Virus record (IMG/VR): IMGVR_UViG_3300033571_007537
Span: 26,991-90,990 of that record
DNA from: a virus
Direction: 5' to 3' (one strand)
Length of the DNA stretch: 64,000 nt
Under the pieces are notes generated by a model that saw only the letters and a program-made list of their open reading frames with translations, did not search any database and was not told the DNA's origin. This document shows positions 22,241-56,672 of the stretch, in pieces; within the stretch, counting starts at the first letter, position 1; each line of letters starts with the position of its first letter. The position numbers were made by a program, and so were the translations under genes.

Positions 22241-22419
22241 GTATTTATTGTATCATGTCTGCGGCTAAGTTTATGTACTTTAATTAAAAATGATACCTTA
22301 ACGTATTTTGCTTTTGGGGTGCGAGATGGCTGCGTATGTTTTCGCGACACGCCCGAATTGTTTCCTGTCCCGTTCAGGTTCTATCATAGATTCGCTTTTG
22401 CCAGAGCCTCAATTCCAGA

Positions 22420-22930
22420 CAAAACAAACAACATCAAGCACATAAGCACACATCAAACAAGACAAACAAACAACAAACATCAAGAGTCAATCAACTCAAT
22501 CAAACACACACACACAAACAAGCACATAGACACATCAAACACACATCAACAACACATCAAGCACATCAAACACACATCAAGCAGACTTTTACTCAATCAA
22601 GCACATCAAACACACACTAAGCACGCCCAGACACCCGTCTAGACCCACTTAGCACCCAGACCCACTTAGACACACCCAGACCCCCTTGAAGTCAATCCCA
22701 GACCCTCCCAGAGCAACTAAGCACACATCTAGGCACACAAACAAACACCCACTAGCCCAGACCCGCCCAGAGCAACCTAAATACCCAGCACAGCGACCAA
22801 ACACCCGCCTCGATACGCCCCCAGCGACCAGACCCTCGCTCAAACACCCACCGCAACCCAGTAATCGCCCCATAGAGCCGTGTAGCCCTCAAAGAGCCGT
22901 GTAGCCCCCCAGACCCAGACACGCCCCCCA
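22420..22930. repeat. Strand-asymmetric low-complexity tract (CACATCAA-like repeats, then CCCAGA-like repeats)
   Basis: Many (A/G)CACATCAA units at 22430-22612, then CACCCAGA/GACCC units; the top strand is strongly G/T-poor. Confidence 0.85.
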
Positions 22931-22942
22931 GAGGCGACCCGC

Positions 22943-22995
22943 AACACGCCGAACATCAAACTCAATTTGACAAACTATAAACAAAACCTCATACT
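22943..22995 (+). promoter_or_regulatory. Early-type promoter: AACACGCC box, TTGACA -35, CATACT -10
   Basis: Box 22943-22950, -35 at 22967-22972, 17-bp spacer, -10 at 22990-22995. Confidence 0.8.
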
Positions 22996-23026
22996 TGATA
23001 CATAGCCACTAGAAAGGAAATCACAA

Positions 23027-23287
23027 ATGGCAACTCGCAACTCAATCACCGCAATCGAAACCTATGATGTTCTAGGTGAAACAAAGTCAATCGCACCTAC
23101 CACTCACGCACTAGTAGAGGCGGTAACTTGGACTGAGGCAGGAGCAATCGCTACCGCACTAGACCACATGGCAAGCGACATGTCCGACAGTCCAGCAAGT
23201 CAGGCATACGCCACTTACCTCAGAGGCATTGCCCAGAAGTTCGAGGGCGTTCTAAACGCAATCGCAATCGCTAAGGGCATGGACTAG
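23027..23287 (+). CDS. Small hypothetical protein in a monocistronic cassette
   Basis: Own promoter, GAAAGGAAA RBS and terminator. Confidence 0.8.
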   Translation: MATRNSITAIETYDVLGETKSIAPTTHALVEAVTWTEAGAIATALDHMASDMSDSPASQAYATYLRGIAQKFEGVLNAIAIAKGMD

Positions 23288-23302
23288 CCCCCAGCAACAA
23301 TA

Positions 23303-23331
23303 AACCCCTCTAGCAGGTTGCTAGGGGGGTT
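23303..23331. terminator. Probably bidirectional intrinsic terminator
   Basis: AACCCCTCTAGCA-ggt-TGCTAGGGGGGTT hairpin between convergent genes. Confidence 0.7.
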
Positions 23332-23362
23332 ATTTGCTACTGAGGCGACTTACGGCAAGCCT

Positions 23363-24766
23363 CTACCTAATCTTGAACCCTCCACCATTGCCACCTCTAA
23401 ACGGACTAATCTTGCGAGCACCCATAGAGCGGGCAGTAATCTTGCCACCACTAAACCCAGCAGGAGGCTTGATTAGAAGAGCCGTGAGGGCGTGAACCAA
23501 CGCGTCCACGCGGTCAGGCGACTTGCCCTCTCCGGGAATCCAAGAATACATTTGCGATTCTAAGTCCGTGAGGTACCCGACATGATGGACGCGACCTTGC
23601 TCATAGGCAAGCGTGATAGGTTCTGCCCGCAACGCTTTTCCGTATTTGGAGTGAACCTCTAACACCGTGACGCTAGGGTCTATTGTGTGTATCGCGTTCT
23701 TCACTAATGCTCCACCTTGATTCACCTCCGCAACCACAGGGCAACCCCACTTGCGAGCCATCTCGACCACCCGCATTGCCCAAACATTAGGCGACCCCAA
23801 GACTGAGGCGTCCTCGACCACCCACGCTTGACGCTTATACAAATCTCTATCTGCCGTGCTTGAAACCACTACGATACCGCACTCATCTCGAGGGTTCTCC
23901 GCGACTGAGGGGTCTACCCCAATTACGCGAAGAGGCGTGCTTGAGGGGTAATTGCCGTGTCTATGCTTTTCAATCATTTCCTCAGTCCAGAGAGCACCCT
24001 CAACATTGTCCAACATCTCGCCATAAAGTTCTTGCTTAGCAAGTGAAGTTCCCGCGTATACGCCCAGCATTGTATCCAGATACGCACCAGAGAGGTTACC
24101 CGCATTGTCCAGCGTCGAGCCACGAGTTACGACCACATTGCGACCCTTATCCGCCTCCTCGAGCAACTTGTAGAGCAACGGCACACGCTTAGGAGTTGTA
24201 GTTACGACCATTTTCGGATACGCACCCAAACGAGTTCCAACACGCAAGTTATCAAACGCAGTCATACCAGCCGCGTCGGGAGTCTGCCTCCAAGCCGCAA
24301 TCTCATCTCCCCAAGCGTGAGTGAACTGAGGTCCACGCAGAGAGTCAGGCTCATCAGCAGTAAACAGAGTTGCCGTGTTGCCATTAGGCCAGGTCAGGCG
24401 ACGCTTAGACGGCTCATACAGAGGCTTTTCAGATGGAGGCGAAACATTCATAATCCCAGACTCACCCTCAACGATTACATCTCGCACATCAGCCGCAGTT
24501 CGGGCTACGAGGGCAAAACGGCGTTGCCCAGTTGTAGTGTATTTCGCTTGCTCCCGCACCCACTCAGAGGCGAGGCGAGTCTTCCCAAAACCACGACCCG
24601 CAAGCACTAACCAGATGTTCCAGTCTTCACCCTCAGGGCAGAATTGCTCAGGGCGACCCCAGACAGACCAGTCCCAGAGCAGAGAGTCCGCGTCCATACC
24701 AGCCAGCACCATCGCCCGTTCAGCCTCAGGGAGGTCAGCGATTTGTTCCATTATAGATTTACCCAT
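23363..24766 (-). CDS. terL: Terminase large subunit
   Basis: Walker A LAGRGFGKT, Walker B AWGDE, TTTP coupling motif, nuclease IGVDPS...PDRVDA. Confidence 0.95.
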   Translation of the reverse strand: MGKSIMEQIADLPEAERAMVLAGMDADSLLWDWSVWGRPEQFCPEGEDWNIWLVLAGRGFGKTRLASEWVREQAKYTTTGQRRFALVARTAADVRDVIVEGESGIMNVSPPSEKPLYEPSKRRLTWPNGNTATLFTADEPDSLRGPQFTHAWGDEIAAWRQTPDAAGMTAFDNLRVGTRLGAYPKMVVTTTPKRVPLLYKLLEEADKGRNVVVTRGSTLDNAGNLSGAYLDTMLGVYAGTSLAKQELYGEMLDNVEGALWTEEMIEKHRHGNYPSSTPLRVIGVDPSVAENPRDECGIVVVSSTADRDLYKRQAWVVEDASVLGSPNVWAMRVVEMARKWGCPVVAEVNQGGALVKNAIHTIDPSVTVLEVHSKYGKALRAEPITLAYEQGRVHHVGYLTDLESQMYSWIPGEGKSPDRVDALVHALTALLIKPPAGFSGGKITARSMGARKISPFRGGNGGGFKIR

Positions 24767-24855
24767 CTTCCCAGTCTACCGCATCTTTTCCCGGTCTTCC
24801 GTGTGTTCCCTCCTCCGGGCCGGGCCGCCTTCATCAACTTTTCACGGAGCAACCA

Positions 24856-24907
24856 GACACGCCGAAGAACCTTCCAATTTGACAAACCAAACTTCATAGC
24901 CCATAAT
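24856..24907 (+). promoter_or_regulatory. Early-type promoter with GACACGCC box
   Basis: GACACGCC 24856-24863, TTGACA 24879-24884, CATAAT 24902-24907. Confidence 0.85.
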
Positions 24908-24949
24908 TACTACATAAGCAAAAATGCTTATCCAACCAAAGGAGATTCA

Positions 24950-25309
24950 ATGACCACCACACTAAACACAATAACCGCAACTGCTACTGAATTTGGTTTT
25001 GACGCAGGTATTACTTTCAGCACTCAAGAGCAACTTGATACTTTTATTGCTCTATTCCCAAAATCAACTAAAGTAGTTGCCACTCGCCTCACCACCCTTG
25101 ACGGAGCAACATCTCCGCACGCTACTTTTGGTATTCGCCTAGTCGCAGATAATGTCAATGGCGGAACTAACGAAACAGGTCTCAAAAGACTTCACAAGTT
25201 CGTCGCGGTAGCAACTTCAAACGGATACGAAATCCACAACAACCCTTGCTACGGAAACTCACTAACCCAAGAAGCGTTCGACAAACTAATCGGGAGGGTG
25301 ATTGCCTAA
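24950..25309 (+). CDS. Hypothetical early protein
   Basis: Start reassigned to MTTTLN after an AAAGGAGA RBS; own promoter and terminator (~25331-25362). Confidence 0.8.
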   Translation: MTTTLNTITATATEFGFDAGITFSTQEQLDTFIALFPKSTKVVATRLTTLDGATSPHATFGIRLVADNVNGGTNETGLKRLHKFVAVATSNGYEIHNNPCYGNSLTQEAFDKLIGRVIA

Positions 25310-25589
25310 CGGCAACCCCGCCTCAACAAAGAAGCCCCCGCCCAGAAGCGGGGGTTTTCTTTTACCCGAAGCGAAGCGAAGCACTTGACTTTTTATAGAA
25401 AGCGTGATGACCGACTTTTTTCGCCAACTTCCGGGTTTTCCGTGTGGTCCAGGTTTCCAGGCCCCTTCGCGATTTCCTCATCAAAACTTTTCATCAAAAG
25501 TTAGCCGTATCCCGATTTGACAAAACAATACCGCGTCCCTCATAATTGCTACATAAACAGAAATGTTTATCTGACCCCAAGGAGATTCA

Positions 25590-25916
25590 ATGACCAATTC
25601 AAACACCGCGACTCAAACTGAACTACTAGACGCTTACATGATTGGCAACGGCGACTTCACTGATGTTGCTTGCCTAGACTGTGCCCGCGAGTTCGCAAGA
25701 ACAAACAAACTCAAGTGGGACTCTCCGTCCGAGGACACCTTCACGATTGAGAAGGGGACGGGTGCTTACGCCTCCTACATACACTCCTCCGAGGGTGAGG
25801 CGGACTCTCCGTATTCTTGTTGCGGACTTTACCTCCACACAAACTTCACCACTGAGGGCGAGGTTTACCTAATGGACGAGTTCCCGAGTTGGGTTGCGGA
25901 ACTCTACGGGTTCTAA
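25590..25916 (+). CDS. Acidic Cys-containing hypothetical early protein
   Basis: TTGACA-18-CATAAT promoter, AAGGAGA RBS, terminator ~25931-25960. Confidence 0.8.
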   Translation: MTNSNTATQTELLDAYMIGNGDFTDVACLDCAREFARTNKLKWDSPSEDTFTIEKGTGAYASYIHSSEGEADSPYSCCGLYLHTNFTTEGEVYLMDEFPSWVAELYGF

Positions 25917-26132
25917 CCCGAACACAAACTAGCCCCCTCCAAGTGAGGGGGTTTAGTTTTATCCGCCCGTAAATGCCCCGCTACGCCCCTCAGCGGGTGA
26001 GGGCGACTAACTTTACCTACTACATCACTTCAACCCCTCAGCGGGCGTCCTAGACCCGATTTGACAGATTGACCCCCTAACCCTCATACTTGATACATAG
26101 AGCAGAGATGCTCCCCGACTAAAGGAGATTCA

Positions 26133-26339
26133 ATGAGCAGTTATTACGATTACCAAGATGACGCGGATTACGCGAAGGAGATTTATTGGGAGGCGAAGGG
26201 ACTTGGAAACGCTAATCCTTCAACCGCAACTCCTAACCGCACTCCAGCACCTCAGATTGAATGCGAGAGATGCCACCGCAGAGGTTCAGCAGAACAAGTT
26301 GCTAGCCACAACATCAAATACCCGAACTGTGCTGACTAA
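26133..26339 (+). CDS. Small zinc-finger-like early protein
   Basis: CERC...H...C; own promoter, RBS and terminator. Confidence 0.75.
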   Translation: MSSYYDYQDDADYAKEIYWEAKGLGNANPSTATPNRTPAPQIECERCHRRGSAEQVASHNIKYPNCAD

Positions 26340-26616
26340 CCCTCAGCACTCAAAGATTTCCCCTCGTAGAGATACGGGGGTTTTCTTTTATCCAAACTGA
26401 AGCAGAAGCAGAACACCAGCACTTGACTTTTCACGAAATTCGCGTAGCCCCGGCTATTCCGGGTTTTCCGTGTAGCTTCCCCGCAGCGAGCAACTTTTTA
26501 CGAACTCCTCTTCAAAACTTTTTTTATTAGTCCGCGTGTCGATTTGACAAAATGTATGCCTATACCCCATACTTGATACATAAGCAGAAATGCTTACCAA
26601 CCTAAAGGAGATTCAA

Positions 26617-26856
26617 ATGAAGAAAGTTGTTCTAGTTAGCAAGTCAGAAGGTCAGCGTGGACAGAACGGTAAGAAGAAGGTTTACGAGATTATCGTTGAA
26701 GGAAACAAAGTAGTTCTGTCTTGGGGTATGGCAGAGAAGTCAGTCCGTCAAACCAAGACCGAGTGGTTCAATAACCCTTACTCCGCAGAGAACTTTGTGT
26801 TCGAAAAGCAATGGGAAAAGATTGCTAAGGGCTACGAAGTGGCATACACCGCGTAG
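26617..26856 (+). CDS. WGR-domain-like protein
   Basis: KKVYEI......VVLSWG...KIAKGY pattern; start after AAAGGAGA. Confidence 0.6.
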   Translation: MKKVVLVSKSEGQRGQNGKKKVYEIIVEGNKVVLSWGMAEKSVRQTKTEWFNNPYSAENFVFEKQWEKIAKGYEVAYTA

Positions 26857-26866
26857 CACTTACGAA

Positions 26867-26902
26867 AAGACCCCCTAGTCGAAATGACTGGGGGGTTCTT
26901 TC
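26867..26902. terminator. Bidirectional terminator where plus- and minus-strand early cassettes converge
   Basis: GACCCCCTAGTC-gaaat-GACTGGGGGGTT flanked by A and T runs. Confidence 0.75.
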
Positions 26903-26911
26903 GTATCTGGA

Positions 26912-27496
26912 TTACCGCACTCGGTTCTTCTCCAAAATAGGGTGATAGACCTTGCTAGTTCCATTACTAGGTTTTAGGTAGCCGTATCTGGCAAGTCTAA
27001 ATCTAATCGCACCGTGAGTAGTTCCTAACCGCTTACCTAATCTGTAAAGCGTTACGCCCTCTGTTGTGTGTGAGTAATTTAGTAGCCTCGTGTATTCTTC
27101 TGCCTCTGCCCTAAACTTTGGTGAATTAGACCGCACCTTGCGTGCTAGAGGTTGAAGTTCTAGCAGTCGTGCCAAAGTTTCTGGCGAAGGTTCAATGTAA
27201 ACTGGTGAAGGTTTTACGGGCTTCAATGGAAGTTCTGGAATAGTTAGTCCATAAGATTTCGTAAGTTCTTCAGCAGTCGAAGCGTCAGTAATTTTTGCCA
27301 CTTGGCGAACTCTCTCCCTTGACCAATGGAATAGTTCAGCGACACTTTGTAATGTCCACCCGTGATTTCTCAATGTGGTTGCGTAAGCGTTTCGTATTTC
27401 TTTCCACTCCGCAGTCGGAAGTGTTGCGTGAAGTTTCGCAACATCAGTCGCAACCTCAGTTGGAAGTTGGTGATTATTTTTCTTGAATTGAGTCAT
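26912..27496 (-). CDS. Double-HTH DNA-binding protein
   Basis: GWTLQSVAELFHWSRERVRQV (sigma region-4-like) and GVTLYRLGKRLGTTHGAIRFRL; start reassigned to MTQFKK. Confidence 0.75.
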   Translation of the reverse strand: MTQFKKNNHQLPTEVATDVAKLHATLPTAEWKEIRNAYATTLRNHGWTLQSVAELFHWSRERVRQVAKITDASTAEELTKSYGLTIPELPLKPVKPSPVYIEPSPETLARLLELQPLARKVRSNSPKFRAEAEEYTRLLNYSHTTEGVTLYRLGKRLGTTHGAIRFRLARYGYLKPSNGTSKVYHPILEKNRVR

Positions 27497-27601
27497 TTTG
27501 TTTTTCTTTCTCCGAGTTTTGTCCCGGTTTTCCGTGTTGAACTTTTGACGAAGAAGAAGCGGGACGCTGAGGTCCCGCACCTTCTTCAGTTTGGTTTGAT
27601 T

Positions 27602-27988
27602 TTAGAAGCGACGATTGTGATAAAAGTCTGAGTCCGAGATTGATTTTCCCGTTTCTTCTTCGAGTTCTATCTTCTCCGCACCGAGCATAATGCCCCATAC
27701 ATCGGATAGAAGATGAGCAAAGTTCTTACCGCGAGTTTGATAAACGCGGTTCTTGAAGTTTGGATAGTCAATCTTCAACGCTTGTTCCGCAACCCACGCT
27801 GACCACTCTGAGTCCTCGATGATTACTCTATACGGGTAGTCCGTATTAGTCTTCTTGATAATCTTCGCACCCGTAAAGTCCACGATGCTTCTGAGGGATT
27901 TCTTGTCCCTCGCACGAACTGTGATTTCGTCTTTGTCATTTTTGTATCGAATCGCCGAAACGAATCCATTTTCAGTAAATAGCCACAT
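27602..27988 (-). CDS. Phage hypothetical protein (MWLFTENGFVS...)
   Basis: 128-aa ORF with a GAGG-like element upstream. Confidence 0.7.
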   Translation of the reverse strand: MWLFTENGFVSAIRYKNDKDEITVRARDKKSLRSIVDFTGAKIIKKTNTDYPYRVIIEDSEWSAWVAEQALKIDYPNFKNRVYQTRGKNFAHLLSDVWGIMLGAEKIELEEETGKSISDSDFYHNRRF

Positions 27989-29198
27989 AAGTATTTGTCC
28001 TCTCGTCTTTGTGTCTTACCGCAAGGAGAAATCTACTCCTTGCTAATCAAGTCTTGAGTTATGCCCTTACGGCGTTATCACAATGTTATCATTTACACTT
28101 GTGCTTGTCAAGCCCGGAGATTTAGGACGGCAAGAGCAAGCGCAGAAGCACCCAGTCCCACTACCGCAGACAGTTCTCCTCCGACTAACACCAGCACAAT
28201 AGTCCCAGCAACAAGAAGCAAAGACCCAACAGCAGTCCAAGCAACCTCCCGCAGTAAAGCGAATAATCTATTCATTTCTTTTTCTCCTCAGTTTGTTTTG
28301 GAAGCACAACTCCCAGAAGGGGTTGAACCTTTCTTGATTTTCTCTCCACCCAGATAACAATCCCAGTAGTGAGCAACGCTGAGGCGACCAGCACCGCAAC
28401 GAGAAGTTGAGTAGCGTCGAAGTTAGTCATCGTCTAGCCCACTCTCCGTGCCCTCAACGAACACCGCAGTAATCATCGCCAGCACAAATACCCCAGCAAG
28501 AATTCCAAATCCGCCCAGTATCCATAAAAAGATTTCCATTGTTTCTCCTAAATCATTTGACACATCACACTCTAACATAAAAATCTTCTGAGGCACCATC
28601 TTTTCCGGGTAGTCCGTGTAGCTTCCGCCATCGCACAAAAAACTCCCTCACCCTGAGGCGAGAGAGTTCTTCGATTTTGTTTACGCTAGTTCAGGTTTCT
28701 TTATTCTGACCATACGCCTAACTCGAAAGTTGGCGTCAATTGGAATTATTCCCGCACGCATAGCCCAGTAAAACAGTTCATACTCCTTGCGAACCGCAAA
28801 CTTATCCAGTTCAGCAATTCTTTCTTGCGTTAGTTTCTTTCTCATTTGATTTCCTTTCACTTGTTATAACTACTTATCTTTGAGATTTATTCCCGCCCTA
28901 GAACGACGCTTACGCTTAGGCGGAACATAGAAGTAATTCACCCACAAAGACCGCGACACGACCGCGAGGAGGGCGAACCCAGTAGCAACCGCGACCATTG
29001 ACAGAACCAGCACAGTTGATTTGTCCATTGACTATTTCCCCGCTTTCTTTCTGAGGTCAAAGTAATAAAGAACTAGCGACTGAGCAATCAAAATAGTTCC
29101 GAGTCCCGCACCAATTACAAACGAGTTCACGCCCTCTGAGGTTGCCCCAACAAAGTAAGCGAACGCCCCAAGTAGGAATACTAAATACTTCAACATAA

Positions 29199-29417
29199 CT
29201 AGCCCACCTTTCTTGCCAAGTTCAAAACTTGTGGAGCAAAGGTTAGGAACACCGCACCTAGTCCACCAATCCAAAGTCCAGTTGCCCAAACTTCACTAGC
29301 ACTTGAACTAGCACCCGCACCCGCACCTACCATCAACGCGTAAGCAAACAAGTAAGCACCCGCAACGAACGGAACTGCTATTAGTCCTACTACTGCTCTA
29401 CGAAAATAAAACTTCAT
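29199..29417 (-). CDS. Small two-TM membrane protein, first of a small membrane-gene cluster
   Basis: Hydrophobic 72 aa, AAAGGAGA RBS. Confidence 0.7.
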   Translation of the reverse strand: MKFYFRRAVVGLIAVPFVAGAYLFAYALMVGAGAGASSSASEVWATGLWIGGLGAVFLTFAPQVLNLARKVG

Positions 29418-29658
29418 TTATTTCTCCTTTTGTCTTTTAGTCTTTCGACTTACTACAAAGGTAGCACATAACCCAATTGAACGCAAGTCCATTTCACCTC
29501 AGCGTGTCGCACTTGACAAAAGTCTTCCTTCGTGAAAAGTCTTCCTCCGTAAAAAGTTGAACGAGTTAGGCAACCCTAACTTTTCCGGGTGCTCCGTGTG
29601 AAGTCCCCGCGTCAAAAAAAAAATCCCCGCCATTTCTGACGGGGAAACTTTTTACTGA

Positions 29659-29847
29659 CTAACCCAAGTCTGGGTAGTAAGGTGTTGGGTCGCAACAACC
29701 GATACAAGAACCGAACGCTGTGCTGTATCTGGTTTCATCTACCAAAGGGTTATCTGCTGTGATTAGTTCTTCGCAGTCTGGGCAGGTTTCAGGTGCTAGT
29801 CCTACTAGGTTTGCTACGAAGTTGATGTTTGTGAAGTTGGTAATCAT
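29659..29847 (-). CDS. Small Cys-rich early protein
   Basis: CPDC...CIGCC; GACACGCC promoter at 29897-29921. Confidence 0.7.
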   Translation of the reverse strand: MITNFTNINFVANLVGLAPETCPDCEELITADNPLVDETRYSTAFGSCIGCCDPTPYYPDLG

Positions 29848-29997
29848 TTGAGTTCCTTTCTTGAACTACTACAATGGTAATGCTTTTGTTTAGGTTTGTC
29901 AAGTTCATTTGACGGCGTGTCGTGAATAACAAAATCCCCCCTGCTGTGTGCTGACAAGGGGGATTTTTTGAGTGTGTCCGACACTCGGCGGGTTCTT

Positions 29998-30186
29998 TTA
30001 CTTTTCCAAGTCTTCCAAGTTTTCCATCTCTTCAACAATCTTCATAATTCTTGCTTGCTGAGTTCCATCTAGACTTGCCCAAGCCAATCCAAAAGCGTAT
30101 GAGTAAGGGTGTGTGCTTGCCATACCTGCTTTTAGTTCTAGTGCTTCGATTAGGTCGCTTGAGTTGATGTAAGTGTTAGTTGTCAT
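29998..30186 (-). CDS. Small hypothetical early protein
   Basis: GAAAGGAAC RBS; promoter at 30235-30264. Confidence 0.7.
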   Translation of the reverse strand: MTTNTYINSSDLIEALELKAGMASTHPYSYAFGLAWASLDGTQQARIMKIVEEMENLEDLEK

Positions 30187-30398
30187 TTGAGTTCCTTTCT
30201 CGAACTACTACAATTGTATTGCTTTTGGTGTTGCTTGTCAAATCCAAAACATTTACGGCGTGTTGTGAACTTCGTGAACACTAACCCGCACTCGTGATAA
30301 TCCCTCTGAGATTGCCCACTCGTGAACTCGTGCTTCGGCTTCGCGTTCTGTATCTGCTTTTACTAAGAAGATGTTTCCGTATCCATTTACCTCGAACA

Positions 30399-30587
30399 CT
30401 ATGACCCCTGTCCGTAAAGTGAAAACCTAATTGTGTTTTCTGGATTAGCACTCTCGGCAATAAGTTTGCGAGTGTTGCTGATAATTCTTTCGGCGTCTTC
30501 CCAAGTGTGAACTTCGTAAAGAGGAGAAAGAACTTCTTCTCCATTGCTGTTGATGATGTTGATTACTAGTGTGTCTATTCTTGCCAT
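30399..30587 (-). CDS. Small hypothetical early protein
   Basis: GAAAAGGAAA RBS; TTGACA promoter near 30640. Confidence 0.65.
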   Translation of the reverse strand: MARIDTLVINIINSNGEEVLSPLYEVHTWEDAERIISNTRKLIAESANPENTIRFSLYGQGS

Positions 30588-30975: not shown

Positions 30976-31653
30976 TTACCTACTCGAAGCGAACAATAGA
31001 GATTTCTGCTGTTCTCTTTCCCTCTGTGCTTTTTGTTCTTTGAAGGATTTATTTTCTAGAACCCGCACATAAGTAATCGTTGAGTAAGTCCCGCCCCAAT
31101 TCTTTATTGAAGCGACACTCGTAACTTGTCCGCGATTTCCGCCAGCGTGAATCATTTTATCTTTTCCAAGATAAATCGCGACGTGGTAGATGTTCTTGCT
31201 TCTCGTGTATGAAAAGATAACAAGGTCGCCTACCTTTGGCTTCTTAGTTACTTTACCCGCGTGGCGTTGTTTGGAAGCAGAGTGTTCAAGTTCAACACCT
31301 ATCTTGCCATAAGCCCAGCGTGTCATACCTGAGCAGTCCCACCCTCGCGGGGTAGACCCTGAGAATACATACCAAGTTTTACCAACTTGATTTCTCAAAG
31401 TCTTCACCATCTTTTTTATTTTGACGGCGTTGCTATTTAGTTTTTTGTTTTTAGCAATCTCTTTTACCATAAGAGTTTGTCTTGCTTCTTGACTTTCCAG
31501 CGACTCAAAGAAGTTTGCTGATGAAGTTGTTGAAACATTTGTTGCTTTTATGTTTATTGACTCGGCGGTCATCTTAGGCTCTTCTGCGTTTGACGGCGTA
31601 GAACCAGATAACACGAGTAGCGTTGCTAATCCGATTGTCAGTAACCTTTTCAT
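30976..31653 (-). CDS. Secreted NlpC/P60 peptidoglycan endopeptidase
   Basis: Signal peptide; GWDCSG...HVAIYLG...IHAG catalytic Cys-His-His. Confidence 0.9.
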   Translation of the reverse strand: MKRLLTIGLATLLVLSGSTPSNAEEPKMTAESINIKATNVSTTSSANFFESLESQEARQTLMVKEIAKNKKLNSNAVKIKKMVKTLRNQVGKTWYVFSGSTPRGWDCSGMTRWAYGKIGVELEHSASKQRHAGKVTKKPKVGDLVIFSYTRSKNIYHVAIYLGKDKMIHAGGNRGQVTSVASIKNWGGTYSTITYVRVLENKSFKEQKAQREREQQKSLLFASSR

Positions 31654-39320: not shown

Positions 39321-40083
39321 CTACTCCCAAATAATCTTGGCAGTTTGAGTCCCTGCTGGCGTCATTCTCCACATCTCGCCATCTTCACCCCTAAATGCCA
39401 TCGCACTATCAGGTGTCGCGACTGAGAGCAGTGCCTCGAAAAGTGGCTCGATGTAAGATGTCCACTTGCCATCAAAAGAGCCAATAGTTAGATTTGTGTC
39501 GTTGAGGTCATAGTCCTCGAACTCGTCCTTCAAAGCGTCTTCTAAGGTTTCTGGTAGTGGCATTTGTCCCCAGTTGCTTTTCTCGTTCAACTTGGTATAA
39601 GCCTCGACAATCGCCTCTAATGCTTTGTCAAAGTTCTCGGCAAGAATAGTTATCTCGCCCTCAGTGCTGTTTGCGTAATAGCCCATTAGTTCTCCTCCAC
39701 TTCTGCGAGCATTTCTGTATCCCAGTTTTCATCGCCCTTTTTGAAATGCTTTTCAAAACTAGGCAACCATTCTAGGTCCATTTCTTCTTCTGCTTCTGCT
39801 AACAACTTCTTAGCGTGTTCCAAGTTATCTGCTTCAAATGAAACGCCATACTTGGTTTCTTCCCAAACATTGAAACTATACTTAGGCATTATTTCTCCTC
39901 CTCTGTGTTTAGTGTGATTAGCAGTGTGATTAGTTCTTGGCGTTCTGCTGGTGTTAGTTCCAGACCGAACTCCATAGTGTAGCCACCATGCTCAGTGATG
40001 TTTCTAACTACTAGTTGAAATAGCCCATTTGAACCAAAGGTGAATGAGCCACCGAAATCGTATCTCTTGTTTTGAGTTTCCAT
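39321..40083 (-). CDS. Operon of three small acidic proteins (39889-40083, 39686-39889, 39321-39686)
   Basis: TAATG coupling; promoter at 40149-40177. Confidence 0.7.
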
Positions 40084-40178
40084 TTGTATCTTCCTTTTCT
40101 AGTTGGTGTATCTCTTGATGTATCTATTGAACCATAGTTGCTCGTATTTGTCAAATCGAGTCAAACTTCGGCGTGTCG

Positions 40179-40711
40179 CTAATCTTCTAGTTCTTGACTT
40201 TCGTAAGCCATAATACAAAGGTCGTCCCACATCTCTTTATCTTTCGGGTCGCGAGCAACCTCAGTGATGAAATAGCCAATGCGTCCTTGTAGCCAGTAGC
40301 CAGCGATAATGATACAGTTGCCGAACTCATCATCTACATAAGTCCAAGTGTTCTCCTCTGGCTGGTTGATTACAAAGTCAATCTCATCTCCATAGGTTTC
40401 AAACATAATCCCATCCCAAGACGCCTCGTTGGAGAGGTGGTTCTTTATAGGCTTGAATGTTTTTTCCCAAGTTTCAACTGTGTATCCCATCATTAGTTCT
40501 CCTCTTCTTCTTCTTCTTCTTCTTCGCAACAAGAAAAGTATTCACTCAACTCTTCTTCGCACTCGGCACAAACTTCCACTGCCTCGAAACTATCAGTTCC
40601 TACATAGTGGTCGTTGAGGTCGCTCAGGAATGCTTTTTCTGCTTCTCTTTCAGTTGCCCCCTCGACAATGCCAGAGTATTCGTATGTTGCTGTGATTTTG
40701 AACTTTGCCAT
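40179..40711 (-). CDS. Two coupled acidic proteins (40493-40711 with poly-Glu tail; 40179-40493)
   Basis: Promoter at 40768-40796; TAATG coupling. Confidence 0.7.
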
Positions 40712-40895
40712 TTTTGATTTCCTTTCATTTGGCTTTATGTCTCTATTGAACCATAAATCTATCTTCGTGTCAAATCAAGTTGTCATCTGGCGTGTCGCAA
40801 CTTTTCATCAAAAGTTGGAAGCCCCTTCGCTTCACACGGAAACTTGGGAAAACTTGAAAAAAGAAAGAGGCGGGATTTCTCCCGCCCCTCTCTGT

Positions 40896-41412
40896 TTAGA
40901 GTTCTATCGACCACTCCGAAAGCAGAGTGATTTCTCGTTTCAGCGATTTGTCGCCATTGTAGAGAACTTCGTTCCTGATTACCTCAGCAACATTGTCCCT
41001 GACATACTCCAAGAACAACTCCTCGTCAAAGAGATACTCGTGGTCTAAGAAAGAGTTTGGAGATTTCTCCTGCTCTTGCTGATACCTGATTTCCAAGAAC
41101 TGGTCTAGGGTCTGTTGCGTGTTGTAAGACACGTTTATCTGACCCGTTATGCTCTGCCCAGTTTCCTCCAAGAAATGCTCTATGGCGGTCTTACGCGTAA
41201 CCTCGTCATCCTGATTAGGCATCCGTTACCTCCCTCCACTGGTCGTGTCCTTCGAGCAGGCTCAGAGACGAGCCGTTGTCCCAACGGACGTAAATCTGTG
41301 TATCTCCCCAGGGGTCTACGCGCTCGCCGATTTGTGTTCCACGGTCGCCTGCCTTGAGGTTCGTGTAAGGGTCGTTGGTGAATACCAACTCAATACGCTT
41401 GCCGTTGTTCAT
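40896..41412 (-). CDS. Two small proteins (41215-41412, DUF4314-like SH3-type; 40896-41222, acidic)
   Basis: DPYTNLKAGDRGT....D.WG...YVRWDNGSSLSL pattern. Confidence 0.65.
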
Positions 41413-41503
41413 TTTCTTTCCTTTCGTTTAGGTGTTGCGGTTCTATTATACAGATGTTTCGTGAAAAGTCAAACTCGCCCGAAGGCGAGCCGACTTCCAC
41501 TTT

Positions 41504-41983
41504 TTACCAACTGGACGAGTATTGGAAATCCCATCCGTCAAACTTTGGGTTGTTGAGAACCCTGTCAAGTTGTGTGATGGTGTGGGTTATCTGGTAGGTA
41601 TACCATTCCTCGTCATCACCTCCGTAAGGGTCTGGTAGCAACTCGTCCGCACTCTCAGGGTTATCCAGAACTTGCTGGCAGAGATTACGCAGGTCTATCA
41701 GCGTATCGCGTGAGACGTAGTAGTCCTTACAGTTGTCCTCGCCGTCTTGGACGTTAGCCACGAACCAGTTGTGAACTCCCCACGCCTTTCGCCACTGAGC
41801 GACTTTGATTTCAACAGTTGCTGATGGATACTCGGTGTCCACGTCGTCAGCAGTTAGTCCTGCTCCTACAACTACGTCTATGTATTTAGGGTTGTCCTCT
41901 GAGATGTAATCTCCCTCAGGGGTTCGTCTGTGATTTGTTCCAGAGATGTATTCTCTAACGTGTAGCCATTGGTCTAGTCCCAT
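41504..41983 (-). CDS. Phage hypothetical protein (MGLDQWL...WRK..GVHNWF...YSSSW)
   Basis: 159 aa; own GACACGCC promoter at 42036-42062. Confidence 0.75.
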   Translation of the reverse strand: MGLDQWLHVREYISGTNHRRTPEGDYISEDNPKYIDVVVGAGLTADDVDTEYPSATVEIKVAQWRKAWGVHNWFVANVQDGEDNCKDYYVSRDTLIDLRNLCQQVLDNPESADELLPDPYGGDDEEWYTYQITHTITQLDRVLNNPKFDGWDFQYSSSW

Positions 41984-42112
41984 TTTATTTTCCTTTCATT
42001 GGGTTATGTTTCTATTATACAGATTTCAATCTGAATGTCAAATCCATTTACTTCGGCGTGTCAAGTTTTGATGGGGGAGGAGTTTTGGAGAAGACCTCCC
42101 CCACCAAGTTTG

Positions 42113-43936
42113 TTATGCGTTCCTCGCACCAATCTTTGTGAGAGCGTCGGCACAAGCCTTGCCAATCAGCGTGGCAGTTTTGTTCGGGTCAGTATCAACA
42201 TTGACCAACTGTCCATCTGTGTTTTCAAGGTAGCGTTTCGCATAGTGAGCGTAATCGTAAGTCAGCCACAGGACAGCCACGCCATTCTTCTGGCACTCTT
42301 TCATCCAATGTCTTGCTCGCTCGCCCTCAGTCGCAGTGTAAGCACCATCAGAGACCACGACAAGCAATCTCGCACCTGAGCCATAGAGCAAGTTCAAAGT
42401 CCCATCAAGAGCCTTGAAAGCCTTGTCGAACTTTTCAGTTCCATCTGGTGCGGAATAAACATTGACATCTGTCAAGTGCTGTCCCGGTTTCAAAGTCGGG
42501 AATACATCTGAACCAAAGTAGACCATTGCTGATTTACCCTGAACACGACGAACAGCCTCAGACATTACCCAAGCAGTCGTAGCCATAGGTTTCATTGCTG
42601 AACCCATTGAACCTGAGATGTCCACCATCACGCCAACAGTCAGAGTTGGGTCGTCAGTTTGCTTTCTCTTGGTCTGTCTCCACGCCTCAACCTGAGTGTG
42701 AATACCCTTGCTCTTTAGAGCAGAACCCTGAACCAACGCACGAGTGCGAAGACGACCGGGAGGCAAGATGTTCTTGACCTCAGTCTCAGAGCGTTCGCGA
42801 TACTTTGCTTGCTCTAACATCTTTGCAATCTTGACTGCTGAGATACGTTCCTCAGAAGTTGGCTTGCGAACTTCGACCAATCTCGACATAGTTCCAGAAC
42901 CCGGTTCTCCCGGTCTGTGTCCATCAACGAAAACTTTTTTTGCCTCTTTTTCATTTTCGCTTTTTGTCTTTGATTGACTTGAAGATTGACTTACAGAGTT
43001 TGACCATTCAGTCGCAGTCTGCTCGTCAGCGACCTCAGTCGCAACTCCAATGCTAGTGTTGCCAGCAGACTCAGCGAGAGCCTCCATCAAATCTCCGAAC
43101 GCGTCGCCTGTGCCTGAGCCTCCGCCCTCACCCCAAGAGCAACCATCTTCGCCCTCGCCCTGCTCGTCGCTAGGTTGAGGTTCGCCAGCCTCGACTGAAA
43201 TGTTGTTCACAACTTCAACCCACTCGCGAGCAAGGTCGTAAAGTGGCAGACCATTTTCGTGCTGTGAGTGTGCCTGAAAACGCAACCAGATTGAACGCAA
43301 CTTTTCAATGTTGTCGTAGCCCAAGATACCAGCGATAGCAAGTTCAGCAGGTTCGACATCAAAGTCTTCAAGAACGCCAGCGTCTACGCGAGCCAAAGTT
43401 AGACCAGCCATACGACTTGCCATACGAACATTTGATAGACCCTCGAAATCTTTAGCGTCGCCAAGAACAATCTCCAACGCACAAGCACGAAGAAAAACTT
43501 TGTTGGCAGGAATAACAGTTACGCCCCAGCCCTCAATGCGAGTCTCTTCCAAAAGATGTAGAGCCTCGTATTCTTCTTTGGTCAGAGCCTTGCTAGCGTC
43601 TTCCAATGAGTAGCGTGAAAAGCGAGCGTGGCTTGCCTCGTGATAGATTGCTCCAGTTCCCTTAGCGAACTCCAACTGGGTCTCGCGTGATGTGATGTCT
43701 GTGATGTGTTCTGGCAAAGTGAAAGCACCAAAAGCACTCTCAGTGTTTACTTCAATTTCCGCACTCGCAGGATTGAAGATTGCTGGTGCTGGTGCGCTAG
43801 CCTCTGGTCCAACGAAGACTACTAAGTCTCCGCGTGACGACCAAGTGTTTGCGAGCGTTCCAATCTGAGAACCCACCTTTAGCCATTCGCTAGGTGTGGT
43901 CTTTTTTGTTTCTACATTAGTTCCGAAGTGTGTCAT
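42113..43936 (-). CDS. Metallopeptidase-like (HExxH) plus von Willebrand A domain protein, CobT-like partner of a MoxR ATPase
   Basis: HEASH motif; MIDAS DISGSM, T (GTE) and D (VVSDG); start reassigned to MTHFGT. Confidence 0.85.
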   Translation of the reverse strand: MTHFGTNVETKKTTPSEWLKVGSQIGTLANTWSSRGDLVVFVGPEASAPAPAIFNPASAEIEVNTESAFGAFTLPEHITDITSRETQLEFAKGTGAIYHEASHARFSRYSLEDASKALTKEEYEALHLLEETRIEGWGVTVIPANKVFLRACALEIVLGDAKDFEGLSNVRMASRMAGLTLARVDAGVLEDFDVEPAELAIAGILGYDNIEKLRSIWLRFQAHSQHENGLPLYDLAREWVEVVNNISVEAGEPQPSDEQGEGEDGCSWGEGGGSGTGDAFGDLMEALAESAGNTSIGVATEVADEQTATEWSNSVSQSSSQSKTKSENEKEAKKVFVDGHRPGEPGSGTMSRLVEVRKPTSEERISAVKIAKMLEQAKYRERSETEVKNILPPGRLRTRALVQGSALKSKGIHTQVEAWRQTKRKQTDDPTLTVGVMVDISGSMGSAMKPMATTAWVMSEAVRRVQGKSAMVYFGSDVFPTLKPGQHLTDVNVYSAPDGTEKFDKAFKALDGTLNLLYGSGARLLVVVSDGAYTATEGERARHWMKECQKNGVAVLWLTYDYAHYAKRYLENTDGQLVNVDTDPNKTATLIGKACADALTKIGARNA

Positions 43937-44092
43937 CTTTCTTCTCCTTTTCTGATAACAACACAAAGGTATCATCTTTTGATACTTTTGTCAAATCCTT
44001 TCGAGGGGGTGGGAATGGGCGTGTCGGGGAACAACGCCCACTCCCTCTCGACCAACTAGATGAAAGGAAGTAAATCTAGTCGGGAGTCTGTG

Positions 44093-45097
44093 CTAAATCT
44101 TCGCTGGCTTGTATTCTTCGCCAAAGGTTCTGGTGAAGACATCAGCCACGATTGGTCTATCCATTTCTGGAGCAGACGCAATCAGGTTAGAGATAGCGAA
44201 AGCAGTTCCGAAGTCATTAGCAACATCTCGGAAAGCAAGCAGTTCACGCATTTGAGGCGACCAAGAAACTTCGCCTGACTGTTGTTTCTTGAACAAGTTT
44301 TGAGCAACAGTCACTACTGGTGCTGGCGCACCTAACTTGCGAGCAAGTGTCCAATCAGTAGTCATTTCTGCGTGAAGTGTGAAACGCGATAGCAGAGCCT
44401 CAGAGAGACGAACTCCCGGAGCGTTAGGGTTAGTCGCACCCAACACATAGAAACCCTCTTTGGCTTTTACAGTTCCGCGTTCTGGGTTCTGAGTAACTGT
44501 GTATTCCTGACGACCATCCATCAGACCATAAACAATCGAAAGAACCTTTGGGTCAATGAGACCAACCTCGTCAATCAGAAGTGGCTTACCCTCTTCCGCA
44601 GATTTTAGTAGAGGTCCATCTACCCATTCGAACCCACCACTTGGTGTCTGAACATAACCACCAACGAGGTCTGAAACCTCAGTGTCTCCAGAGCCAAGAA
44701 TTGTGTAAAGGTCTTCGCCAAAAGCGGCCTCGACCAATGCTGTCTTGCCACAACCGGGCGCCCCATAGAGCAGGATGAAGTGTCCAGCAGTGCGAGCCTT
44801 TTTCAAGACCTCGACGTCTGAGTGTTCACCCCAAGCACGAGAGAAGTAAGCCTGACCATTTGGTCGCAGGTATTGGCTCTCGCCAACCATTGCGTCTGCC
44901 ACGATAGTCTTCACTTTCTTTGCTGTGCCTGAACCGCGTTGAGTAACCTTGCCAGCAATGTTGTAGTAAGAGTTGAGTTTGTCTTTCAACTCTGAGTTGA
45001 GCGACTGACCAGCAACAGCAAACAATGCGTCTGCTACCCCTGTGCCAAGCCTGTCTTGCTTGATGATGTCCTGTAAATCTGTATCTGTATAAACCAT
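44093..45097 (-). CDS. MoxR/CobS-like AAA+ ATPase
   Basis: GAPGCGKT, LLIDE, ATNP, LSEALLSRF; start reassigned to MVYTD. Confidence 0.9.
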   Translation of the reverse strand: MVYTDTDLQDIIKQDRLGTGVADALFAVAGQSLNSELKDKLNSYYNIAGKVTQRGSGTAKKVKTIVADAMVGESQYLRPNGQAYFSRAWGEHSDVEVLKKARTAGHFILLYGAPGCGKTALVEAAFGEDLYTILGSGDTEVSDLVGGYVQTPSGGFEWVDGPLLKSAEEGKPLLIDEVGLIDPKVLSIVYGLMDGRQEYTVTQNPERGTVKAKEGFYVLGATNPNAPGVRLSEALLSRFTLHAEMTTDWTLARKLGAPAPVVTVAQNLFKKQQSGEVSWSPQMRELLAFRDVANDFGTAFAISNLIASAPEMDRPIVADVFTRTFGEEYKPAKI

Positions 45098-45146
45098 TGT
45101 ATCTTCCTTTCTAGTAATGGTCTTGTGTTGCTGTGTTGCTGTGTTT

Positions 45147-45632
45147 CTATTCTGCCATAGCGAATAGGTTTTTGTCAAATCCAAGTGCCTCGCGTGAACG
45201 CAAGACTCTACGAATGAGACCCTGTGGTGTGCTTTGTGAACGCACTAGTGCTAAGTCTTCGAATGAATACTCAACTGCGACAGGTTGCTTTTGTAGTGTC
45301 CAACCCTGATGATGAACCTGCGACAGAAGTGGCTGAATAAATGCCAAGCCCTGCTGTGCGAAGTGCTTAGCCTCAGAGAGTTCGTATTCTTTGAAAGTGC
45401 CATCTGGGTTACGAACAACATTTCGCAATGCTCTGTCTGCTGTTCTCGCACTGTCAAATCTCCAAGACTTGCGTGGGTGGTGTTCTGAAATCTGTCGTCG
45501 CATAAGCGTCGTAGTTCTTAGTTCACCATTTTCATCCACGACCTCTGGGGTCAGGATGATTTGTAGGGTGTAGTCCCCTCGACGGAACTCTAGGTAGAGT
45601 GCCTTTCCTAATACTGTGTTCTTGTCCATCAT
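45147..45632 (-). CDS. Hypothetical protein upstream of the AAA+ ATPase
   Basis: 161 aa; GACACGCC promoter at 45683-45712. Confidence 0.7.
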   Translation of the reverse strand: MMDKNTVLGKALYLEFRRGDYTLQIILTPEVVDENGELRTTTLMRRQISEHHPRKSWRFDSARTADRALRNVVRNPDGTFKEYELSEAKHFAQQGLAFIQPLLSQVHHQGWTLQKQPVAVEYSFEDLALVRSQSTPQGLIRRVLRSREALGFDKNLFAMAE

Positions 45633-45867
45633 TTATTTTCCTTTCGTTGATGTGTTACAAGTAAATCATAAATCTTGTTGCTTGTCAAATCGAACTACTT
45701 GTTCGGCGTGTCGCCATTCTTGTAGAAGTCGAGTAGTGCCTCAATGACTCCGCACTGAGAGCAAATCTCAGTTTCGTTGTCCTTGCGTGAGAGCGCACCT
45801 GCGTATGCTCCCGGAGTTTCATTGTTCGGGATGAACCCCTCACAAATCGGACAGATTGGAAACTCAC

Positions 45868-46068
45868 TCAAGGGAGTTCCTCCAAACTGTCTTGGTAAAC
45901 CTCTGTTGAGATTCCGTGATTTCTGTCGTCGAACTCTGGAAGTTCGTCCGAGCCAATCTCGTCCTCTGCCCACTGGCGAGCCAGTTCCTTCGCGTGTTCA
46001 AGATTGTCAGCATCAAATGTGCCTTTCCATTCTTCAATCACGTCGAATCTAATAAAATACTTTGGCAT
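45868..46068 (-). CDS. Small acidic protein (paralog of 39686-39889)
   Basis: Shared MPKY....EE....F.ADNLEHAK.L. Confidence 0.7.
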   Translation of the reverse strand: MPKYFIRFDVIEEWKGTFDADNLEHAKELARQWAEDEIGSDELPEFDDRNHGISTEVYQDSLEELP

Positions 46069-46154
46069 TGCATTCTCCTTTCAAAAGAACTTGTATAACT
46101 AAGTAAACACTATTTATTCAGTTTTGTCAAATCGAGACTACTCTCGGCGTGTCG

Positions 46155-46657
46155 TTAGGTGTTGCTCATAAAGACGAAAGTGTCTTCGCCATTTATTACT
46201 GCCTTTACGAACTCGAACATTTCGCTTTCTGCGAGGTTGTTGAAAATCTCCCACTGGTCTTCGTTGAGGTCGTCTTCGTTGAAGATAACCACATCTCCTT
46301 GACCCTGTGAGCCATCTTCGGCAATCCAGCACTTGTTCTCTATCACCTGTGATTTTTGGTTTTCCATCAGCGAGCCTCCCCTGCGTGTTGCTTTGCGTAG
46401 GAGTCTAGTGAACTTAGGAAGTCGTCGAGACCCTCCATCTCAACAGATGGGACGCAGGTGTCAAGATACCTGACTAAGTCTGAGTAGAGATGTTCTACCT
46501 CGTCGCCAGTTGGCTCGACCCAATCTATCTCGTTGTTGGTCAGCGAGTAACTCGCGAACTTTTCACCAGTTGGTAGGAACGCGTTTAGGCGAACCTCTGC
46601 TAGTTCAGTGTTTGTTGCGAACTTCATTTTGTAGTTAGTCATTTGTTTTCCTTTCAT
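46155..46657 (-). CDS. Two small acidic proteins (46367-~46642, 46155-46367)
   Basis: Coupled ORFs after a TTGACA promoter near 46694. Confidence 0.6.
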
Positions 46658-46704
46658 TGACTATGTATCTATTGAATCATACTTCTTTGGATTTGTCAAA
46701 TCGT

Positions 46705-47121
46705 CTAATACTCGGCAGGTGTGATGTTTGTGCCAAGTTCCATTGCGAGTTTGTAGATGTTTGTGAGGTCAATAGTTCTGGTCTCACCCTTGTTGTTGTA
46801 AGCGACTGCGTATCCAGAGATGTAACGAAGTTTCTCTGCTCCAGACTCCATAATGATTGCGACCCATCCATCTTCTAGATGTGCTTGGAAAATCTTGTCC
46901 CAGTTGATTTCAAGGTATTCACCATCCTCGTCTGAATACTGAGAGTATGGAAAGCCACTGCCATCAGGGTCAGTGCCTAGTAGCCCAACAAGTTGGACGC
47001 CATCCTTTTCCTGAGTAATGATTTCTACATCATTTGTAACTGCGTTGATGTCAGTAGTGAATGCTTCAACGTCCTTCACTAGGAAGTAGTTGGTTCTTGC
47101 TGATGCGTAATAGTTTGCCAT
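46705..47121 (-). CDS. Phage hypothetical early protein (MANYYASARTNYF...)
   Basis: Rightmost GACACGCC cassette (47176-47203). Confidence 0.75.
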   Translation of the reverse strand: MANYYASARTNYFLVKDVEAFTTDINAVTNDVEIITQEKDGVQLVGLLGTDPDGSGFPYSQYSDEDGEYLEINWDKIFQAHLEDGWVAIIMESGAEKLRYISGYAVAYNNKGETRTIDLTNIYKLAMELGTNITPAEY

Positions 47122-47239
47122 TTGTTTTTCTCCTTTTCATTGGCGTAAGAAGAGTATGGCGTCTTTTATACAATTTGTCAAATCGACGTGAACGTGGCGT
47201 GTCGTAAGGGGTTTAGAGTTTTCCCAAACTTCCGTGTGG

Positions 47240-47467
47240 CTAAATAAAACCTGGATTTAGAAAAGGCTCAGCACACGGAATACATAGGAGAAACTCACTC
47301 TCACCATCAAGCACCACTCCACAAGGAATGAACTTTGAATCAGTGAACGCAACCTGCTGTGAGCAGTGCTCGCAGAACTCATCCGTTCCAAAGTCGATAA
47401 GTCCAATGAACTCTAAAGACTCTGCGTCCTTCTCGGTTTCTGCTATGTGAAATTCAATATGTTTCAT
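47240..47467 (-). CDS. Small Zn-finger-like protein, probably leaderless
   Basis: CEHC...CIPC; TAGACT 6 nt before the ATG. Confidence 0.6.
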   Translation of the reverse strand: MKHIEFHIAETEKDAESLEFIGLIDFGTDEFCEHCSQQVAFTDSKFIPCGVVLDGESEFLLCIPCAEPFLNPGFI

Positions 47468-47506
47468 AGGTAAAGTCTATGATACAAATTGGAGGGTGAT
47501 TGTGCG

Positions 47507-47869
47507 TTAGTACCAACCCACCCGTTTGATGTGCGACCACGCACCACAAGCACGGTTAGGGTAGCGGTGCACCATGTACTTCCACGCATCACGCACTTGT
47601 GTGTAAGGCTTGCCGTTATGACGTGCCTTCGCGTTAGCCATCTGACCCAAGCCGTAGTAGCGTCCGTTGACTGCACGGTGATTCCATCGAGACTCGTAGT
47701 GGATGACACGGTTAAAGCACTCCCACTGGGACTTGCCACCCTTAGCGGTTACGTATCCCTGAGCGTAGGCTTTTATCTCAGCGGTTGAAGGCGGGCCTTT
47801 GGCGCTCGCCGTTGAAGCAGGAAGCATCGTAAGGCAGGCCGTCAAAACGCTCGCCGTTAAAAGTTTCAC
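47507..47869 (-). CDS. Secreted lytic transglycosylase-like (lysozyme-fold) protein
   Basis: Signal peptide; ECFNRVIHYESRWN..A.N..YYGLGQ; RY...C.AW......GWY. Start uncertain (GTG 47869). Confidence 0.75.
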   Translation of the reverse strand: MKLLTASVLTACLTMLPASTASAKGPPSTAEIKAYAQGYVTAKGGKSQWECFNRVIHYESRWNHRAVNGRYYGLGQMANAKARHNGKPYTQVRDAWKYMVHRYPNRACGAWSHIKRVGWY

Positions 47870-47880
47870 GGGACTCGCCG

Positions 47881-56669: not shown

Positions 56670-56672
56670 TAA

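Follow-up and report, generated by a model that had tools for sequence, protein, structure and literature searches.

Introduction

Phages T5 and BF23 are subject to restriction only when recognition sites lie in the first-step-transfer DNA of their terminal repeat (PMC10644984; 10.1101/866236), the remainder of the T5 genome being shielded by an unidentified early function (PMC10644984). In T7-like phages, as studied in Murciavirus, restriction likewise acts only via motifs in the leading region (PMC12455610). Here we describe a regional pattern of this kind in a 64,000-nucleotide stretch of virus DNA (positions 26,991 to 90,990 of IMG/VR record IMGVR_UViG_3300033571_007537), in which a block of 25 kb has been purged of palindromic four-letter words. 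The whole stretch, hereafter the window, is the right-hand 64 kb of a single 90,990-bp metagenomic virus contig, which is probably incomplete and ends without overlap. Judged from its gene content and relatives, the source is an uncultured lake tailed phage of Actinobacteria; its large terminase shares 74% identity with the one of the lake metagenome phage DSL-LC01, and 63% with those of Microbacterium phages such as A3Wally.

The locus shares with T5 and BF23 a bounded segment of small early genes with host-type promoters in two directions (T5 record), as well as a repeat-rich region at one edge, and as in T5 the avoidance of sites is confined to one segment. However, the first-step DNA of T5 shows no depletion of 4-bp palindromes and T5 avoids few sites, of 6 bp or longer, while here ten of the 16 four-letter palindromes and several interrupted ones have been removed over 25 kb; the analogy is therefore one of logic and not of degree. 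Two-step entry, a stop signal and a terminal repeat are putative in the present phage, and the purged zone can, in relatives, be split by unpurged late genes, which sets it apart from T5.

For the Bacillus phage SPO1, Stewart et al. are said to have described in 1998 a host-takeover module situated in a 13-kb terminal redundancy. The present block resembles this module in its many small genes with very strong host-sigma promoters and strong ribosome sites, the SPO1 genes lying in a terminal repeat and being expressed first, but there is no sequence relationship between the two. SPO1 relies on hydroxymethyluracil DNA, and we know of no report of a regional loss of restriction sites in this phage. 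The T7-like phages offer a parallel in that only the motifs which enter first and are transcribed by the host decide the sensitivity to restriction, anti-defence genes being located there following the logic of Ocr (PMC12455610). In that system, however, the motifs are of Type I, the region spans a few kb and entry is driven by transcription, while the block described here concerns 4-bp palindromes of Type II character, spans 25 kb and has promoters pointing both ways. Genome-wide palindrome avoidance in phages is inferred to have the same selective agent, and is also seen here for GATC, but the main signal in this genome is confined to one region with sharp bounds and goes with a single promoter class. 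A search of the available papers for a regional purge of 4-bp palindromes in phages returned the T5/BF23 and T7-like precedents only.

A 25-kb block purged of palindromic words

Expected word counts were derived from a second-order Markov model, that is, from the trinucleotide composition. Between positions 22302 and 47456 of the window ten 4-bp palindromes are together observed 43 times against 739 expected, which equals a depletion of 94%. TTAA, ATAT and GATC are absent altogether (67, 53 and 83 expected, respectively), and the remaining seven are reduced to one copy of GTAC (72 expected), two of TGCA (99), three of AGCT (74), six of GCGC (100), seven of GGCC (54), eight of CATG (61) and 16 of ACGT (76). 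We know of no characterised restriction enzyme for ATAT. When every 4-bp palindrome is counted in 2-kb bins, the loss of sites is abrupt and visible at about 22.3-47.5 kb, the block being contiguous in this genome, sharply bounded and equal to 28% of the contig. The seven words TTAA, AGCT, GTAC, TGCA, ATAT, CATG and ACGT have a mean spacing of 57 bp genome-wide, while site-free gaps within the block reach 4.5 kb. The preliminary description of this DNA, which had noted a scarcity of TTAA, AGCT, GTAC and TGCA over some 25 kb, is thus borne out in a stronger form, and the regional depletion holds after correction for trinucleotide composition.

The edges were placed by the sites that bound the block. 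On the left the final sites are a TTAA at 22298 and an ACGT at 22301, while on the right the first sites to reappear are an ATAT at 47457 and a GTAC at 47510. Of the limits first proposed, 22310 and 47710, the right one accordingly has to be moved about 250 bp leftwards, to 47456.

The depletion is specific to palindromes. When all 256 four-letter words are ranked by the same Markov expectation, the 11 with the lowest z-scores in the block are palindromes without exception, and most of the 5-mers at the bottom of the ranking are one half of an interrupted palindrome (GCWGC, GTSAC, GGWCC, CCWGG, GANTC). Interrupted palindromes themselves are depleted as well, these being GTNAC, GCNGC, ACNGT, GGNCC, GGNNCC, CCNNGG, CCWGG and GANTC. 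There is no general dislike of symmetry, because CGCG, CTAG, TCGA, TATA and CCGG remain near expectation (observed-to-expected ratio, O/E, 0.64-0.83), AATT being halved. The three residual AGCT copies (26474, 28620 and 30916) all lie within a conserved motif, TCCGTGTAGCTTC, just as had been noted for the tails of this motif.

In the remaining 66 kb of the contig the depletion of these words is only mild (O/E 0.5-0.97), with the exception of GATC, which does not occur once in the 90,990 bp against approximately 286 expected. CCGG, GGCC and GCGC are also low across the whole contig, and with GATC they represent a second, genome-wide tier of avoidance. A third zone, poor in AGCT alone (1-3 copies per 2 kb compared to 10-17 in the head module), comprises positions 50000-62000 of the window and 1-4000 of the contig, and covers genes for nucleotide metabolism and replication. 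Within the block, seven of the ACGT sites are clustered in a single early unit at 41100-42000, where the purge is locally relaxed for this word only; the cluster suggests a recent exchange of a cassette with a lineage that does not avoid ACGT.

Selection against sites is current

Whether sites are still being removed was assessed as the number of private sites per substitution in pairwise genome comparisons. Between the present genome and the related locus L001, the block has gained 10 private sites over 693 substitutions (0.014), compared to 128 over 846 (0.151) in the flanking head genes. In the relatives L011 and L013, where the purged zone is divided in two, the corresponding values are 5 over 679 (0.007) and 1 over 93 (0.011) in the two purged blocks, designated A and B, compared to 96 over 565 (0.170) in the intervening island that carries the large terminase gene (terL) and 173 over 983 (0.176) in structural genes. 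New sites per substitution are thus approximately 10-25 times rarer inside the block than outside. In DNA of this kind a site would arise from about 14% of all substitutions that are possible, so that a neutral relic would refill within about one percent of divergence, and selection on the block is current.

The block coincides with one class of early-type promoters

The block is built of approximately 30 units with a recurrent order of elements, namely a GACACGCC-type box, 10-14 nt, the word ATTTGACA, 17 nt, TAnnnT, a GAAAGGA ribosome site and ATG. These elements are nearly exclusive to the block, as all 18 genomic copies of the GACACGCC box lie inside it (between 22346 and 47196), together with 28 of the 29 copies of ATTTGACA and 23 of the 24 copies of the ribosome site GAAAGGAA. 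About 30 consensus host-type promoters (TTGACA-N17-TAnnnT) are likewise confined to the block, and these probably drive the earliest genes. The leftmost box (22346) is within 45 bp of the left edge of the purge and the rightmost one (47196) about 260 bp inside the right edge, so that the range of the block is the range of one promoter class, a rule which also applies to two relatives, G003 and G004, with their own motifs. The claim that the purge follows position and not gene class is therefore half right: terL, which lacks an early-type promoter, is included here, but the block coincides exactly with this promoter class, and in at least two related lineages the terL operon has kept its sites, with a purged early block to either side.

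The units are arranged in arms of unequal length. The main arm (26912-47204, minus strand) comprises approximately 24 early units with promoters from 47176 down to 30236, and includes genes encoding a sigma-70 region-4-like protein (26912-27580), an NlpC/P60 peptidase (30976-31653), a VWA protein (42113-43975) and an AAA_5 ATPase (44093-45184), all on the minus strand. A short arm (24856-26900, plus strand) has promoters at 24878, 25516, 26060 and 26543. terL itself (23363-24766, minus strand) is purged here and unpurged in many relatives. Between terL and the head genes, and convergent with terL, lies a single early-type unit, ‘Block B’ (22918-23335, plus strand), which consists of a box, a -35 element at 22966, an 86-aa gene (23027-23287) and a terminator-like hairpin. 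Homologues of the 86-aa product were found in the two nearest relatives only, and no conserved gene was found in this small block beyond terL. In total, 24 of the promoters point leftward and five (22966 and 24878-26543) rightward, and they are not all directed inward from either edge of the block. Most genes in the block are small and without an assigned function, and the overall layout is, as read from the sequence, that of a cassette array of the early, host-takeover type.

Host-type promoters or transcription as such were tried as the cause of the purge and rejected, as promoter-like sites outside the block are locally unpurged in all five genomes compared.

The boxes may be read by a regulator encoded by the phage. 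A gene outside the block (62520-63044, minus strand) encodes a fusion of a WhiB protein and a WhiA helix-turn-helix (HTH) domain (Pfam Whib 3e-15, HTH_WhiA 4e-9). The GACAC-type boxes, which precede all of the early promoters, are consistent with a WhiA-like site. This suggests that the early class has a regulator encoded by the phage, and the fusion protein is a plausible candidate reader of the boxes.

An A/C-rich non-coding tract (22381-22940, plus strand), flanked by the GACACGCC boxes at 22346 and 22918, is situated just inside the left edge of the block, where the preliminary description had seen the boundary. This attribution fails on comparison, and the tract was rejected as a conserved boundary element or telomere, as no counterpart was found in the four whole relatives compared or in DSL-LC01. 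Contigs of two relatives break at homopolymer or low-complexity runs that adjoin a purged block, which looks like an effect of assembly.

Conservation and splitting of the purged zone in relatives

Of 441 related terminase loci in IMG/VR, 80 were fetched for comparison, and in approximately 40 of these a block at the syntenic position is purged. Four relatives were compared as whole genomes, G001 (102 kb), G002 (125 kb), G003 (137.5 kb) and G004 (153.7 kb), of which G003 and G004 close into circles. These have 65-79% nucleotide identity to the present genome, mainly in conserved genes, and the same gene order. Each contains one purged block at the same syntenic place, with site-free gaps of 4-10 kb compared to mean spacings of 28-70 bp, and in G003 and G004 the block begins one or two genes upstream of the AAA_5/VWA gene pair. 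The sets of lost words differ, the G003 block having kept AGCT and GATC and lost TCGA, and some words are avoided throughout a genome: G001 is devoid of AGCT and GATC and has a single CGCG in 102 kb, and DSL-LC01 lacks TTAA and ATAT in 129 kb. A sub-block of G001, at 69-75 kb, has a different word set, TGCA being present again.

The early units of the relatives have motifs of their own. In G004 (loci L112/L113, 131429-145090) the motif GGTATTTATTTTTTCTG is present in 15 copies, all on the same strand, one before each early unit and only in the purged block, at spacings of about 560-1300 bp (mostly 600-700), and a GACAC-like element precedes the promoter in most of the 15 intergenic contexts. 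GGTATTTATTTTTTCTG is shared with G002, while G001 has a motif of its own, GCGTGGAAAA, with 14 of its 16 copies in the block and two just past the edge. Of the 16 residual sites in the G004 block, nine fall within the untranscribed gaps that account for 18% of the block.

With respect to terL, three layouts were distinguished among the 80 loci. In the layout of the present genome (approximately 18 loci) the purge extends through terL and about 1.3 kb beyond, and in a second layout (approximately 10) it ends 3-8 kb upstream of terL. In the third (approximately 11) a 4-kb stretch that is fully unpurged has purged DNA on both sides. This split layout covers at least two lineages, L011/L013 and L080, which are only 70% identical to each other, and in G003, the genome of L011, the island contains an NlpC/P60 gene, a peptidoglycan-binding gene and terL. 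The small far block of the split layout has early-type promoters that point back at terL and is under selection, while no selection against sites acts on the terL island. On the head-gene side of terL the DNA is purged in one of the 80 loci (L063) and partly so in another (L074), L063 being the sole locus in which the purge reaches at least 5 kb past terL into that side.

The right flank and a likely genome end

The first unpurged gene at the right edge encodes a transglycosylase-like protein (47507-47908, minus strand). It is followed by DNA that is 2-3 times over-rich in AGCT, ACGT and TTAA (47700-50300; AGCT 8.5 per kb, ACGT 11.9 per kb), in which seven same-strand copies of CGTTAAAAGYT are found (47855-50253, plus strand). 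The whole genome contains nine copies of this motif on that strand and two on the other, and in the variants present in the block the TTAA is broken. Two copies are part of 29-bp near-palindromic repeats at 48208 and 48306. The cluster could be a protein-binding array that serves as a packaging signal, a stop signal or an operator.

The same flank contains an endolysin-like gene (48366-49127, minus strand; 35% identity to A3Wally gp4, E 1e-35) and a homologue of A3Wally gp1 (49308-50240, minus strand; 36% identity, E 6e-57). The ends of A3Wally were determined from sequencing reads by its depositors, and its genome has an exact direct terminal repeat of 15,503 bp with 41 small genes, of which gp1 is the first and gp4, an endolysin gene, the fourth. 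The array of small genes in this repeat is syntenic with ours and begins with counterparts of the two genes that lie just past our block on the right, and by this homology a long terminal repeat probably starts near 50.3 kb of the window and runs leftward into the block. In relatives having both landmarks the block starts 2.8-4.9 kb downstream of the gp1-like gene, and a collapsed repeat could underlie the circular assemblies of G003 and G004.

Why is only part of the genome purged?

A palindrome-specific purge reflects enzymes acting on double-stranded DNA, and the agent is almost certainly a set of symmetric enzymes specific for such DNA, i.e. Type II restriction. A purge of only a part of the genome helps only if the remainder is not exposed simultaneously, which is the logic of T5 and BF23. 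We infer that the enzymes are those of the host, that the bulk of the genome is taken up or shielded at a later time, and that a terminal repeat contains the block. The direction of the promoters does not decide the geometry, since the early genes of T5 also run in both directions.

The best explanation, and one we regard as probable, is that the block is an array of early cassettes needed before protection is established, with staged entry from a terminal repeat. The approximately 30 small units, in each of which a GACAC-type box, a consensus host-type promoter and a strong ribosome site are combined, would form a host-takeover array that is transcribed from unmodified incoming DNA before any counter-measure of the phage, and selection would continuously strip Type II restriction sites from them. 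The rest of the genome would not be exposed in this early period and would keep its sites, most likely because the DNA enters in stages from a long terminal repeat, in the manner of T5. A broad anti-restriction function, made early, would then follow this entry, and words outside the reach of that protection, such as GATC here, would be lost genome-wide.

This T5-like reading, already proposed in the preliminary description, gains from the finding that the purge is real, palindrome-specific, under selection and situated in an early-gene region, but several observations weigh against it. The idea of a long terminal repeat is favoured by the A3Wally gp1 and gp4 homologues that adjoin the block; however, the same homology puts the likely end 2.8 kb outside the purge (2.8-4.9 kb across relatives), in DNA that is unpurged and even site-rich. 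The 4-kb unpurged terL island, which splits the zone in L011/L013 and L080, is not predicted by simple contiguous entry. No known anti-restriction gene and, in a further difference from T5, no homologue of A1 or A2 was found (PHROG/Pfam) among the approximately 27 open reading frames scanned in the block, which were mostly of at least 100 aa, small frames being only partly covered. Finally, no regional purge is seen in the cultured soil relatives A3Wally and GodonK.

All of the observations could be accommodated if the copy of the repeat that enters first serves as an expression template only and is not inherited, so that only the early units need be free of sites, although we consider this form of staged entry rather unlikely. 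Late genes and spacers, such as the terL island and the segment from gp1 to the lysin gene, might then be cut, and an intact second copy of the repeat would arrive later under protection, recombination restoring the genome. With such a template-only first copy, selection follows the transcription units and not the DNA molecule. This requires terL-containing repeats in some lineages, which are not seen in A3Wally.

It has alternatively been considered that the purge provides immunity to 4-bp nucleases of the phage itself, made early or carried in the virion, that shred the DNA of the host. The early block would then survive only if devoid of these words, with the remaining DNA still outside the cell or shielded later. 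An idea of this kind has been published for T5 A1, as Davison's proposal (10.1101/866236). The word sets that differ between close lineages, as phage-borne genes could, and the many block genes without known function would agree with it, but about ten to eighteen specificities per phage would be required, and no nuclease family is recognised in the block beyond two small open reading frames that weakly match part of a RecE-like family. As staged entry is still needed to spare the late region, this explanation, which we judge improbable, is a variant and not a true alternative.

To an equally small degree we credit the possibility that the DNA in the virion is protected, through a modified base or by methylases of the phage, except in the early units, which would be left bare for the RNA polymerase of the host and could escape restriction by their sequence alone. 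Exempting these units from modification would explain why the purge tracks transcription units rather than contiguity, and fits the grouping at 58.7-61.4 kb of a ThyX-type enzyme, a T4-gp1-like dNMP kinase and a glycosyltransferase. However, no DNA methylase was recognised in this probably incomplete contig, the genome-wide loss of GATC shows that sequence avoidance is used outside the block too, and we know of no precedent for region-specific base modification. Considered on its own, this gene group (58693-61449), in which the kinase is fused to DUF4406 and lies beside the ThyX and glycosyltransferase genes, may hint at a modified base.

Actinophages are highly mosaic, and the block might be a fading relic, recently acquired from a word-avoiding lineage. 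Sub-blocks with other word sets (ACGT at 41.1-42.0 kb here, TGCA at 69-75 kb in G001) and the genome-wide avoidance of certain words in some relatives point in this direction. Nevertheless, the same syntenic region is purged at 65-79% identity, the head module almost never, and per substitution new sites accrue 10-25 times more slowly in the block; conserved synteny and the substitution test thus largely refute this origin, which we hold to be very improbable. A false joining, during assembly, of two phages that differ in word usage, for which only the nature of the contig speaks (metagenomic, probably incomplete and without end overlap), is ruled out for practical purposes by the recurrence of the layout in dozens of independent assemblies, two of them circular, by the single terL seen, by a block that complements its flanking modules and by the absence of GATC on both sides of each edge.

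Other features of the genome

Outside the purged block the genome carries a portal gene, giant head-module proteins, a DNA polymerase A, an SNF2 helicase and ThyX. The first gene on the head side (21731-22240) was tried as a small terminase and gave weak HTH matches only. One of the giant head-module proteins (14333-18691; 1452 aa) contains four stretches of the ADP-ribosyltransferase exoenzyme family (Pfam E 3e-44), and this ADP-ribosyltransferase-like protein is a candidate injected effector.

Implications

The principle of regional site avoidance is known, and what is new here is its scale, the host group, the lineage-specific word sets and the pattern at the level of single units. The purge most likely represents a purely sequence-based mark of the phage DNA that is exposed first, and one that can be read in uncultured genomes. 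The split zones of the relatives in turn raise the question whether the first-entering DNA must survive, or only be expressed. If the favoured explanation is true, the staged delivery known from T5 would also be used by a large family of freshwater actinophages, and a broad anti-restriction function, directed against at least ten Type II specificities, would be encoded among approximately 50 uncharacterised small early genes. The comparison of words lost genome-wide with those lost in the block only would separate the defences which the phage cannot disarm from those which it can. Under the same premise, the phages of uncultured lake Actinobacteria would reveal which words are recognised by the restriction enzymes of their hosts, ATAT being among these words.

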